Source: an uncultured archaeon (GTDB lineage Archaea > Asgardarchaeota > Thorarchaeia > Thorarchaeales > Thorarchaeaceae). Taken from it: a stretch of 9,652 nt of DNA. The notes under the pieces were generated by a model. That model was not told the origin of the DNA, did no database searches, and saw only the letters and a list, made by a program, of their open reading frames with translations. A program made the position numbers and the translations under genes. Shown piece after piece: positions 5,978 through 9,561 of the stretch (the stretch's first letter is position 1; each line of letters starts with the position of its first letter). The stretch spans positions 1-9,652 of the forward strand of contig CAYHAA010000037.1 in NCBI GenBank assembly GCA_964354495.1, in the 5' to 3' direction.

Positions 5978-7060
5978 ATGAATTCCTACGAGAAACTAGC
6001 AGCCACGCTAGACAAAATTCCTAATGGATTTCCGGCTGTTGAAGACGGAACCCATCTGAGAATACTTGAATGGATTTTTACTCCTGAGGAGGCAGAGCTC
6101 GCTAGCAAGATGAAACTTCGAGGCGAGACTCTAGACGAGATGGCGGGTCGTCTGAGGATTCCAAAGAAGAAACTCAATTTGCTTCTTACCACTATGGTGT
6201 CTAAGGGGCAGATCAGTTCATGGACATCCAAGAGCGCAGGTGGCAAGAAGTACGGACTGCTCCCCTTTGCAGTTGGAATCTATGAAGAACAACTGAATCG
6301 CATGGACGAGGAGTTTGCACGACTGCTGGAGCAGTACTTTAAACAGGGTTTCAAAAAAATCGCTACAATAGAGCCGGTCATCTTCAAGGTCATTCCTGTC
6401 AACCAGAGCATCAGAGGCGAGCTCGAGATTCATCCCTACGAGCAGGCAGAGCAGCTTCTTGAGAATGCAGCATCGTGGGGGATTCGAGAATGCATCTGCA
6501 AGAAGCAGAAAGCACTTCTTGGACAGCCATGTTCCTATCCTACAACCGTCTGCATGGCTTTCGTCCCGAACAGAGAACACGCATTTGATAATGATGAGCT
6601 TACAAAGCCGATTACGAAAGAGGAGTCACTGAGACTTCTGAGGCAGGCAGAGGAAGCAGGTCTTGTCCACTGCTCATACAACACACAGGCAGGTCATTAC
6701 TACATCTGTAACTGCTGTACATGCTGTTGTGCTGTTCTCAGGGGGTTCAGTGCGCTCAGCAATCCTCGTGAGTACATAAAGACCGATTTCGTAATTTCAG
6801 TGAATGCAGACCTATGCACTGGATGCGGAACATGCATAGATAGATGTCAGTTCCATGCTCTCAGCGTCCCTGAAGATGTATGTGTTCCCAATACAACAAG
6901 ATGCATTGGATGTGGGGTCTGTGCCATGGTGTGCCCCGAATCTGCACTAGAGCTCATTAGAAAGGAACCTGCAGATAAGCCACCCTCGCCCGAGAATCTA
7001 ATGGATTGGATGACTCAGCGTGCAGTCTTTCGCAAGGTAGATCCCTCAGATGTGCTCTAG
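5978..7060 (+). CDS. Iron-sulfur protein: N-terminal HTH-like region, Cys-rich central domain, C-terminal 2x[4Fe-4S] ferredoxin domain
   Basis: 360 aa. HTH-like TLDEMAGRLRIPKKKLNLLLTTMVSKG. Central ECIC..PC..VC and ICNCCTCCC. Ferredoxin motifs CTGCGTCIDRC and CIGCGVCAMVCP. Confidence 0.85.
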   Translation: MNSYEKLAATLDKIPNGFPAVEDGTHLRILEWIFTPEEAELASKMKLRGETLDEMAGRLRIPKKKLNLLLTTMVSKGQISSWTSKSAGGKKYGLLPFAVGIYEEQLNRMDEEFARLLEQYFKQGFKKIATIEPVIFKVIPVNQSIRGELEIHPYEQAEQLLENAASWGIRECICKKQKALLGQPCSYPTTVCMAFVPNREHAFDNDELTKPITKEESLRLLRQAEEAGLVHCSYNTQAGHYYICNCCTCCCAVLRGFSALSNPREYIKTDFVISVNADLCTGCGTCIDRCQFHALSVPEDVCVPNTTRCIGCGVCAMVCPESALELIRKEPADKPPSPENLMDWMTQRAVFRKVDPSDVL

Positions 7061-7120
7061 GCCAAAAAGGTATGACTACTCTTAAGAAGAACCGAGAGGA
7101 AAGAATCCCTGGAGTTGCTC

Positions 7121-8092
7121 ATGACAATCAACACGAACTCTGGCAAAAAGAAGAGTAAGTCAGAGAAGGTGCGATCAACTCCTTATATTCCACATCTTGC
7201 CGAGTTCTATTTTGAACCGACCTTTGATTGGACCTATGAGGAGGCAAAGCTGCTCTTTGCCAGCAAGACTCACGCGCTTAAGGAGTTTGAACAGGACACT
7301 GTGTTGTTCATGGAATGCATAGAGGGCATGAAGCAACTACCGGAGTCATCAGTTGATCTGGTCATTGCTGACCCTCCTTTTGGAATCGCTTTCGATGGGA
7401 AGAGCAGTGTCTACAATCGTGATGAGTCCCTCGTGGTTGGTGGCTACACAGAGGCTCAGGGGTCTTACGACGAGTTCACTAGGCAATGGATGGGCCAACT
7501 ACCTCGAATAATGAAAAATGATGCCTCCGCCTACGTATTCAGTGGGTGGACTAATCTTGGAGCTATTCTGGCTGGTGCAGAAGAGGCTGGCCTCGTAACA
7601 TTGAACCATCTAATCTGGCACTATTCCTTTGGGGTCTATACAAAACGAAGGTTCGTGACAAGTCACTATCATATTGTGCTGCTCGTCAAAGACACTAGTA
7701 GCCACTTCTTCAACAAGATAGAGAACTATCCCGAGGATGTGTGGATTGTGAACCGCAAGTACAGAGCTGGACTTGCAAAGAATGGCACCAAGCTTCCACT
7801 CGATGTTGTTGCTCGCTGTATCGACTTCTCCTCAAGGCCTGGTGACCTCGTGTTGGATCCCTTCATGGGAAATGGTACAACTGCCGTCGCAGCAAAGTCC
7901 GCATTTCGGCACTTTTTGGGATTCGAAGTCAATAAGAGGCTGAAGCCGCTTCTTAGGCGTGAGATAAGTTCAGTGAAACCTGGCCAATCATACAAGCCCT
8001 ATAGAGAACGTCTTCCAACACTTGATGAATTGGCAGAGCTCCATCCGCGTGCCTATCAAGAATATCAACAGAGAGCAGGAAAGAAATACTGA
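7121..8092 (+). CDS. Site-specific DNA methyltransferase (N4-C or N6-A), beta class
   Basis: Catalytic motif IV (LVIADPPFG) precedes SAM-binding motif I (LVLDPFMGNGTTAVAA), which is the beta order. Start moved to the ATG at 7121, with GGAG at 7111-7114 (323 aa). Confidence 0.92.
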   Translation: MTINTNSGKKKSKSEKVRSTPYIPHLAEFYFEPTFDWTYEEAKLLFASKTHALKEFEQDTVLFMECIEGMKQLPESSVDLVIADPPFGIAFDGKSSVYNRDESLVVGGYTEAQGSYDEFTRQWMGQLPRIMKNDASAYVFSGWTNLGAILAGAEEAGLVTLNHLIWHYSFGVYTKRRFVTSHYHIVLLVKDTSSHFFNKIENYPEDVWIVNRKYRAGLAKNGTKLPLDVVARCIDFSSRPGDLVLDPFMGNGTTAVAAKSAFRHFLGFEVNKRLKPLLRREISSVKPGQSYKPYRERLPTLDELAELHPRAYQEYQQRAGKKY

Positions 8093-8121
8093 CTCATGCA
8101 ACTAGAAGATGTGACTGAAGA

Positions 8122-9561
8122 ATGGACCCTGAAGATTTGCTTGCTGAACATGGTTCCGCCTTTGATAGGCTTGCAGATGCCTCCAGTTCAAGCGACATCT
8201 TCAGCAGACAATTCGGGACAGAGTTAGCCAAGTGGGAGTTCGCATTCTTCCAGAGATTCTGTGAACGCCTCAAGGGGCAAAGGCTCCTGTATCGTGGATT
8301 TGTACGGCACACCCGTGACACATCATTGATTCTCTTGACCCCCAGTCCTTGGTTGCTTGAGGGTGAGTTTGTGTTCTTTGAGCGAGACCAGAATTTGCCT
8401 GATGATGGTGCCTATGTCGAAGTGACGGGCAGAAGAGTGGCCGCTCCGACTGTTCTCCAGCACTCACAGACTGTGCTTCGCGCCATAACCGCAGAATCGT
8501 GTCAAGAACTCCCGATAGACTTTTCCTCCCAGATTGCGCCCCCATTGAGTCTCGCTGAGCTCTCAAGGATGCTGTTCGAGCGAGTGGGGATGGCCGAGGC
8601 AAGCAAACGAGTCTTTGCCAGGCTCTTTGTTTCCAGCCCCCCCTATCAGACAGCTGTTGGAGGCCTGACTACAGGTATTCAGGCCATTGCCTCTATGGCT
8701 GAAGTGCATAGATTCCTGTCATTCATAAGAGGAGTTCTCCCGCCAACCATGAGGAACAGGAAGACCTCCGTACAGGATGTACGTGGAATCAGGGTTCCTA
8801 CACCACGAATGTTCAGGATCGATATCGGCTCACTACCAAGGTCAAGACTGGAACGAATCTGCATTGAGCGTAGAGACCCGTCTGGCTTCAGAGAGGTCTC
8901 AGTGGGCACGATGACGGAACCAGAGACCGCTGCATTACCAGATATCCCGCTCGCGCTTGCGTCCGAGGACTTTTGGATTGAGACGGGAAACCCCGCAGAA
9001 CTTCAACTGCCAATCTTGAAGTCAGCAATTACCTATCAGCTGTTGACTCCAGTGGTATCACAGCGTAGTATTGACACCGGCACAAAGCATGTACTGTCAA
9101 GACTAGAAGCACTACAGGAGAGCTTCGAGCTAGGAGAGAGTGCGCTCACTCGAGGAAAGGTGCTAGATGCCGATTCGCTAGGTAGACCGATGACAGCGCT
9201 GAAAATTGCGCGTTCAACAGCACGAGCATCTTGGAATGACAAAGTCACTGCAAGTGAAATCAAGCAGTCTTGGGACAGGGTCGTTGAACCCGCACTGAAG
9301 GAGTTCATAGAAATAGCTGAGGTCAAGAGGAAATCAGAAGAGGACTGGGGAAAAAGGAGTCGCATTGACAAATTCAATACAAAGGTCCTGAAAGCTATTC
9401 GGCAGCTGGATACTGGGAAACGGGGCGATCTTGGCCCGACCCTAAATGAGATCGCTCAAGAAGCAGGTGTTGAACGCTATGTTGCTGCAGAGAACCTGGT
9501 GCGGATGAAGGATAGCGGGGTGCTCTATGAACCGCGACCAGGTCACTACAGACTTGTGTAA
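8122..9561 (+). CDS. Hypothetical protein; probable degenerate (ATPase-dead) MCM-family paralogue with a C-terminal winged helix
   Basis: 479 aa, and the CDS itself is clear. MCM-like segments occur in the correct order: LPDDGAYVEVTG (OB fold), VGMAEASKRVFARLF, FLSFIRGVLP, LKSAITYQLLTP, RPMTALKIARSTARASWNDKVT, GVLYEPRPGHYRLV*. There is no GxxGxxKS, no Walker B DE and no Zn-finger cysteine pairs. Family assignment is by eye. Confidence 0.65.
   Translation: MDPEDLLAEHGSAFDRLADASSSSDIFSRQFGTELAKWEFAFFQRFCERLKGQRLLYRGFVRHTRDTSLILLTPSPWLLEGEFVFFERDQNLPDDGAYVEVTGRRVAAPTVLQHSQTVLRAITAESCQELPIDFSSQIAPPLSLAELSRMLFERVGMAEASKRVFARLFVSSPPYQTAVGGLTTGIQAIASMAEVHRFLSFIRGVLPPTMRNRKTSVQDVRGIRVPTPRMFRIDIGSLPRSRLERICIERRDPSGFREVSVGTMTEPETAALPDIPLALASEDFWIETGNPAELQLPILKSAITYQLLTPVVSQRSIDTGTKHVLSRLEALQESFELGESALTRGKVLDADSLGRPMTALKIARSTARASWNDKVTASEIKQSWDRVVEPALKEFIEIAEVKRKSEEDWGKRSRIDKFNTKVLKAIRQLDTGKRGDLGPTLNEIAQEAGVERYVAAENLVRMKDSGVLYEPRPGHYRLV

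Follow-up and report, generated by a model that had tools for sequence, protein, structure and literature searches.

The 9652-bp window analysed here is the whole of contig C37 (CAYHAA010000037.1) of an archaeal genome of the family Thorarchaeaceae (GCA_964354495.1; 3.3 Mb, 97.7% complete). Close to its downstream end, the window carries two neighbouring genes, which encode a beta-class DNA methyltransferase and a 479-residue protein related to MCM helicases (Table 1). This gene pair, and the question of whether its members belong together, are the subject of the present analysis. The methyltransferase reading frame starts with an ATG at 7121, has an in-frame TTG at 7115, and ends with the stop codon at 8090-8092, whereas the frame of the 479-residue protein runs from the ATG at 8122 to the stop codon at 9559-9561. 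The coordinates and scans agree with the earlier note on this DNA, according to which the two genes are located on the same strand, 29 nucleotides apart, with no obvious terminator between them. The same is true of its statement that the window lacks a recognisable restriction endonuclease, HsdS or HsdR, an integrase and a transposase, since none was recognised among the seven large open reading frames of the window in Pfam and NCBIfam scans, with the limit that sequence searches easily miss Type II nucleases. The guanine-plus-cytosine (GC) content of positions 7000-9500 is 0.48-0.54, like that of the rest of the window.

Table 1 Features of the methyltransferase and MCM paralogue locus, in window positions
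Feature	Positions	Strand	Evidence or remark
Beta-class DNA methyltransferase, 323 residues, N6_N4_Mtase family	7121..8092	+	PF01555, E 5.9e-31
Intergenic spacer, 29 nucleotides	8093..8121	.	lacks oligo-T, a hairpin terminator and any recognisable TATA-like element
Predicted ATPase-dead MCM paralogue, 479 residues	8122..9561	+	profile, AlphaFold2 model, fold search
2x[4Fe-4S] protein, 360 residues	5978..7060	+	Pfam Fer4, E 1e-12 (C-terminal domain)
Gelsolin-like gene, last 28 codons, cut by the contig end	9564..9650	-	translation matches the gelsolin-like C-terminus of locus L004

Searches with the single sequence of the 479-residue protein returned nothing significant from Pfam, NCBIfam or PADLOC, and its best match in the PDB had a non-significant E value of 0.033. 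Weak matches to PhnG and AbiEi_4 were below the cut-offs of these families and were rejected as the identity of the protein. A profile built from 25 homologues matched the last ~120 residues of the MCM of Saccharolobus solfataricus (SsoMCM; 4fdg, residues 571-692) with an E value of 1.2e-12, the Asgard MCM 8x7t with an E value of 1.7e-10, and isolated MCM winged helices. The AlphaFold2 (AF2) model of the protein reached a predicted local distance difference test score (pLDDT) of 84 and a predicted template-modelling score of 0.80. The top 50 Foldseek matches of the model were all MCM proteins (best E value 4e-12). VIA-align superimposed residues ~44-400 on MCM2-7, archaeal MCM, MCM8/9 and the inactive MCM2 of M. 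kandleri (3f8t) with Z scores of 15-17; the scores were lower for RavA and Mg-chelatase (Z 9-12) and for BrxL (8emc, Z 8.3). Residues 400-479 form a winged helix, for which the C-termini of MCM (2m45 and 2ma3) were found as matches. The protein is thus laid out as an N-terminal domain with an OB fold, a degenerate AAA+ core, a lid and a C-terminal winged helix. The label "MCM-like" in the earlier note, which has no significant support from single-sequence searches, is borne out by the profile and the fold.

The motifs of a working ATPase are missing from this scaffold. No Walker A motif is present family-wide at the P-loop position among 141 full-length homologues, and a loop of three residues joins the first strand of the AAA+ core to the first helix. 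An exception is the distant homologue P0154, in which VGKS (residues ~183-190) is positioned exactly at the place of Walker A, either as a relic of a former P-loop or by coincidence. Neither DEFDK nor the SRFD arginine finger is conserved in the family, and hhalign pairs the SRFD segment of MCM with LPDIP of the 479-residue protein. The protein contains three cysteines and no Zn-finger motif, and PF00493 does not match it at E ≤ 10. When the whole genome was searched with PF00493, the 479-residue protein was not detected; the search yielded the canonical MCM, encoded on contig C6, and one weak match, on contig C16. The canonical MCM of the genome, 690 residues long, has GDPGTGKS, DEFDK and SRFD. 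The match on contig C16 (G000:C16:36788-37150, locus L031; 26.8 bits, 331-residue frame) probably represents a further member of the MCM/Mg-chelatase group of AAA+ proteins. By profile and predicted fold, the 479-residue protein is an ATPase-dead, Zn-finger-less paralogue of MCM, hereafter dead MCM, in accordance with the earlier description of a dead MCM with a winged helix. Because nucleotide binding and hydrolysis appear to be lost, dead MCM would serve only as a scaffold that binds DNA or proteins, and it may have a role with the replisome or at origins. A homologue with 74% identity (P0018) is publicly named "mRNA-degrading endonuclease toxin of MazEF"; this name is at odds with the MCM fold and appears to be a mistake in the annotation.

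The methyltransferase matches PF01555 with 108.6 bits (cut-off 26.7), and its residues 78-275 span positions 1-216 of the 221 positions of the model. Motif IV, DPPF (within DLVIADPPFG, residues ~78-88), precedes motif I, DPFMGNGTT (residues ~246-254), which is the order of the beta class, as previously claimed. The two motif segments are invariant in 26 orthologues, and orthologues of 320-322 residues share the start methionine. The closest solved structure is that of CcrM of Caulobacter (6pbd; E 9e-27, residues 53-274). CcrM is an orphan beta-class methyltransferase tied to cell-cycle control, and the likeness to it lies in the beta-class N6_N4_Mtase core and the catalytic motif DPP[YF]. Orthology to CcrM was rejected: the CcrM equivalog NF050803 of NCBIfam gave 108.8 bits, far under its cut-off of 830, and only model positions 2-254 of 350 were covered, so that the C-terminal third of the model, including the C-terminal domain of CcrM, remained unmatched. 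The methyltransferase has strongly conserved N-terminal (~55 residues) and C-terminal (~45 residues) extensions of its own, which are not interpretable because its AF2 model is too poor (mean pLDDT 51, shallow alignment). Residues 1-55 (window positions 7121-7285) contain a lysine-rich stretch followed by the invariant YIPxLAEFYFxPTxDW, where I-P-H-L-A-E-F-Y resembles a PCNA-interacting (PIP-box-like) motif minus the glutamine.

The combination of DPPF with a core like that of CcrM or HinfI suggests N6-adenine as the target, and on this similarity the enzyme probably produces N6-methyladenine at a short site. PADLOC matched it only with generic models of Type II or orphan methyltransferases. 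The view that it has no recognisable nuclease partner stands, since no nuclease family was found in the reading frames of the window and the neighbouring protein has the fold of MCM. The enzyme is best read as a Type II-like DNA methyltransferase of the beta class that belongs to the persistent orphans.

As in an operon, the two genes share a strand and are closely spaced, with no terminator recognised at their junction. There is no run of five T on the plus strand in or near the gap at 8093-8121, the intrinsic-terminator scan gave no hairpin-plus-T terminator, and Rfam had no match at the junction. A sigma-70 promoter scan, which does not cover archaeal promoters, was negative as well. No TATA/BRE-like element upstream of the dead-MCM gene was seen by eye to be shared across 18 loci, and the upstream regions of the orthologues have no conserved motif in common. 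Given the gap of 29 nucleotides and the lack of a terminator, the methyltransferase and dead MCM are probably transcribed together in this genome, in line with the probable operon of the earlier note.

The linkage of the two genes within the family was tallied by comparing the coordinates of dead-MCM and methyltransferase matches in 86 genomes. The genes are adjacent in 63 of them, on the same strand, with the methyltransferase upstream and a gap of ~20-110 nucleotides. One gene is inserted between them in four genomes, the methyltransferase is located elsewhere in 12, and contig ends prevent a classification of the remaining seven. The insertions consist of genes without relation to the pair: an ABC-type ATPase gene on the same strand in G320 and G322, and a 336-residue open reading frame on the opposite strand in G349 and G350, which belong to the genus of the window. 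The opposite-strand frame does not allow read-through, and the dead-MCM gene must therefore have its own promoter in these two genomes. Nine of the 12 genomes with separated genes were inspected as loci. The gene of the 2x[4Fe-4S] iron-sulfur protein directly abuts the dead-MCM gene in genus g9 and in G321, an NYN-domain gene does so in G318, and other genes in G319, G323 and G324. In the dead-MCM tree, G321 groups with G320 and G322, which have kept the methyltransferase; the pair was thus separated at least twice independently, a count stated only as a lower bound because the base of the tree is unresolved.

The neighbour on the other side of dead MCM provides a control for synteny. The gelsolin-like gene is immediately adjacent to the dead-MCM gene in 71 of the 86 genomes, more often than the methyltransferase, and in all nine inspected loci without an adjacent methyltransferase. 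It is convergent and cannot share a transcript with dead MCM. It opens a block of functionally unrelated genes, continuing with those for Fpg glycosylase, an M20 peptidase, a luciferase-like oxidoreductase, Ham1 and TrmB, which is kept in nearly all inspected loci. As such a neighbour is commoner than the methyltransferase, adjacency in this family carries little functional information. Linkage beyond general synteny together with a matching phyletic pattern, the mark of a conserved pair, was not found.

Apart from its own genome, where it occurs once, dead MCM was found in 85 of 85 genomes of the family, which span 16 genera, with 47-95% identity and essentially as a single copy. The 314 other genomes of the phylum yielded only a few distant matches, and an exhaustive search of 1.8 billion representatives added ~20 clusters of proteins with 440-490 residues and 21-31% identity. 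A methyltransferase of the family studied here is kept in 82 of the 85 genomes. Matches to it with 47-57% identity (E ~1e-100 to 1e-120) occur in many Asgard families without the partner, for example f8 (30/31), f11, f12, f17, f18, f21 and f23. In f6, f9 and f30, where distant homologues of the partner are present, the methyltransferase query found 0/4, 0/3 and 0/5 at E ≤ 1e-10. Outside the family, the phyletic patterns of the methyltransferase and dead MCM are independent. The conservation of the pair across Asgard archaea on which the earlier proposal depended thus holds inside the family, where the two genes are usually linked, and fails elsewhere, where homologues are unlinked and adjacency has no counterpart.

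None of the seven inspected contexts of distant dead-MCM homologues includes a methyltransferase beside them. These homologues adjoin genes for glutamate dehydrogenase, for fumarase or serine dehydratase, for a UvrD helicase, or unannotated genes; another context combines Cren7, orc1/cdc6 and TFB, and no conserved context was found among them. At locus L009:368-4693 (G088:C153), a 478-residue distant homologue is encoded 190 nucleotides downstream of, and co-oriented with, the gene of an 899-residue UvrD-type helicase. At locus L028:1504-4543 (GCA_038872915.1, JAVZFI010000016.1), the gene of a homologue with 24% identity is positioned tail-to-tail with orc1/cdc6, ~550 nucleotides away; a TFIIB gene follows, and the genome encodes Cren7. 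This arrangement, a single case, could hint at an origin-linked role of the dead-MCM family.

The methyltransferases themselves are of two types. In a maximum-likelihood tree, the enzymes encoded next to dead MCM are confined to Thorarchaeaceae. A second clade, termed "solo" (support 96/92), unites the methyltransferases of other Asgard families without the partner with those of the Thorarchaeaceae genera that do not have the adjacent type. At least one genome, G334, carries both. The split in the tree indicates that the genera without an adjacent methyltransferase lost this type or never had it, and that they kept the solo paralogue. The neighbours of solo methyltransferase genes are NifS/NifU, GNAT, FtsX-like and PFL genes, with no nuclease adjoining; in such company, the solo enzyme also looks like an orphan. 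Both types fit the established archaeal category of persistent orphan Type II methyltransferases, which includes the N4-methylcytosine methyltransferase of Halobacteria specific for CTAG and the Dam-like GATC methyltransferases (PMC10609329). The enzymes described here resemble members of this category in being solitary and Type II-like, in lacking a recognisable nuclease, in being kept vertically throughout a taxon, and in residing among housekeeping genes. They differ in belonging to an Asgard lineage and in that adjacent and solo paralogues replace each other within one family.

Based on the linkage and distribution of the two genes, we favour, with fair though far from complete confidence, the explanation that they are core genes independent of each other, which strong local synteny keeps side by side, and do not form an obligate two-gene system. 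The pair would consist of separate chromosomal genes within a strongly syntenic core-gene block of this Thorarchaeota family. Their junction would reflect a gene order specific to the lineage; it would be neither a functional module nor a system for restriction-modification or defence. Neither gene would need the other, and dead MCM, retaining the OB fold, AAA+ scaffold, lid and winged helix, would function as a binding scaffold. Several observations weigh against this explanation. The junction is kept in 10 of the 16 genera at 50-95% protein identity, the genes are always co-oriented and closely spaced where it is intact, and it survives in loci L002 and L024, which lack the upstream iron-sulfur gene. 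Such persistence exceeds the expectation for a random pair. Furthermore, the solo paralogue was kept where the adjacent methyltransferase was lost, so that dead MCM may need methylation of this kind.

An alternative is a functional module specific to Thorarchaeota, in which the methyltransferase marks chromosomal sites and dead MCM reads the mark or is positioned by it, for example in origin licensing or chromosome handling, and in which the solo methyltransferase substitutes after the loss of the adjacent one. The tight co-oriented junction without a terminator, its retention in 63 of 86 genomes and in the absence of the iron-sulfur gene, the methyltransferase kept in 82 of 85 genomes, and the one distant partner homologue near orc1/cdc6 are consistent with this alternative. 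We nevertheless consider it rather unlikely. The unrelated convergent gelsolin-like gene adjoins dead MCM more often than the methyltransferase does; the pair has come apart in at least two independent events, and unrelated genes have been inserted into it, in one case on the opposite strand; many Asgard families have related methyltransferases without the partner; f6, f9 and f30 have distant partner homologues without a methyltransferase detectable at the threshold used; and the distant homologues share no context. The methylation-linked control module put forward in the earlier note is therefore disfavoured: its two genes are adjacent in a single family, and their distributions outside it are independent. 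Prediction of a complex between dead MCM (28-row alignment) and the methyltransferase (26-row alignment) ended with a score of 0.00, which is no answer and provides evidence neither way.

In a bolder form of functional coupling, dead MCM of Thorarchaeota might use its OB fold and winged helix to read the mark of either the adjacent or the solo methyltransferase and so couple methylation to helicase loading or origin use. We regard this as improbable. If it were true, dead MCM would be an archaeal, MCM-derived counterpart of methylation readers of the SeqA/GcrA type, found among the prokaryotes most closely related to eukaryotes.

Genes for MCM and for methyltransferases are often carried on mobile elements of archaea, and the pair could be the remnant of an ancient integrated element that was domesticated in the ancestor of the family, its genes remaining together for historical reasons. 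The confinement of the adjacent methyltransferase type to the family would agree with such an origin, as would a mostly viral cluster of MCM-like proteins among the protein-language-model look-alikes of dead MCM (score 0.87, a lead only). However, neither an integrase nor a tRNA target nor a repeat was seen in the window, its composition gives no signal of an element, the flanking genes are conserved core genes, and the distant partner homologues are situated among housekeeping genes. A domesticated element is thus a quite improbable source of the pair.

A methyltransferase beside a protein of no known family has the classic look of a restriction-modification system. BREX pairs the methyltransferase PglX with BrxL, whose AAA+ core is MCM-like and which appeared in the fold search, so that the locus resembles BREX in combining a methyltransferase gene with an MCM-related AAA+ fold. 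A minimal restriction-modification or BREX-like defence pair with the 479-residue protein as its effector is nevertheless extremely improbable, and the minimal defence system suggested by the earlier note finds no support: dead MCM, as modelled, shows neither the fold nor a motif of a nuclease and lacks a functional ATPase; it gives no PADLOC match, and its fold matches MCM (Z 15-17) far better than BrxL (Z 8.3); it is a single-copy core gene with host-like GC content, found in 85 of 85 genomes at a fixed syntenic place in a block of unrelated housekeeping-type genes; and it persists without an adjacent methyltransferase in 12 genomes, where an active restriction partner deprived of its methylase would presumably harm the cell. 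The methyltransferase, a small beta-class enzyme, is different from PglX, the partner is without both the ATPase motifs and a Lon-like domain such as that of BrxL, the window has no genes for BrxA, BrxB, BrxC or PglZ, and PADLOC reports no BREX match. The possibility that dead MCM is a cognate restriction nuclease was rejected because of its predicted fold.

Compared with MCM helicases (4fdg, 8x7t, MCM2-7 and 3f8t), dead MCM shares the OB fold, the AAA+ scaffold, the lid and the winged helix, but it lacks the Zn finger, Walker A, DEFDK and SRFD as well as a match to PF00493, and it is ~210 residues shorter than the canonical MCM of its own genome. Another MCM-related protein without ATPase motifs is the MCM-binding protein of eukaryotes (MCM-BP, PF09739), a protein-language-model look-alike of dead MCM with a score of 0.83, which is a lead only; the Pfam MCM_bind family does not match dead MCM even at E ≤ 10, and no homology was established. 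Searches of the literature found no description of an inactive archaeal MCM paralogue or of orphan methyltransferases in Asgard archaea. A publication considered as a precedent for an inactive MCM (PMC3307487) was rejected, as it concerns an inactivated RecJ.

The iron-sulfur gene upstream of the pair has the same direction as the methyltransferase gene and is separated from it by 60 nucleotides; the two may share a transcription unit that starts with the iron-sulfur gene. The N-terminal ~260 residues of its product match no family, and the 2x[4Fe-4S] domain is C-terminal. In related genomes, the orthologue of this gene is located upstream of the methyltransferase gene or, if that is missing, directly upstream of the dead-MCM gene. 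Genome G320 (locus L020) contains the iron-sulfur gene twice, with the copies 4 kb apart. The minus-strand gelsolin-like gene ends two nucleotides past the stop codon of the dead-MCM gene, and its remainder was found at G000:C7:3-551. Because this gene is split between contigs C37 and C7, the two contigs are neighbours in the chromosome. The remaining reading frames of the window encode ArsB, a DUF362-like protein, a zinc-ribbon/coiled-coil protein and an M20 amidohydrolase, as identified by Pfam and NCBIfam.

The best reading of the locus as ordinary gene order removes a candidate for a new defence or epigenetic system. Of interest are instead the two genes taken separately. One belongs to a lineage of DNA methyltransferases that many Asgard families retain with no recognisable nuclease. 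The other encodes a putative helicase-dead MCM paralogue that occurs throughout one Asgard family, with faint relatives elsewhere among archaea. The specialisation of MCM paralogues gave eukaryotes MCM2-7, MCM8/9 and MCM-BP, and dead MCM may inform how such paralogues specialise.

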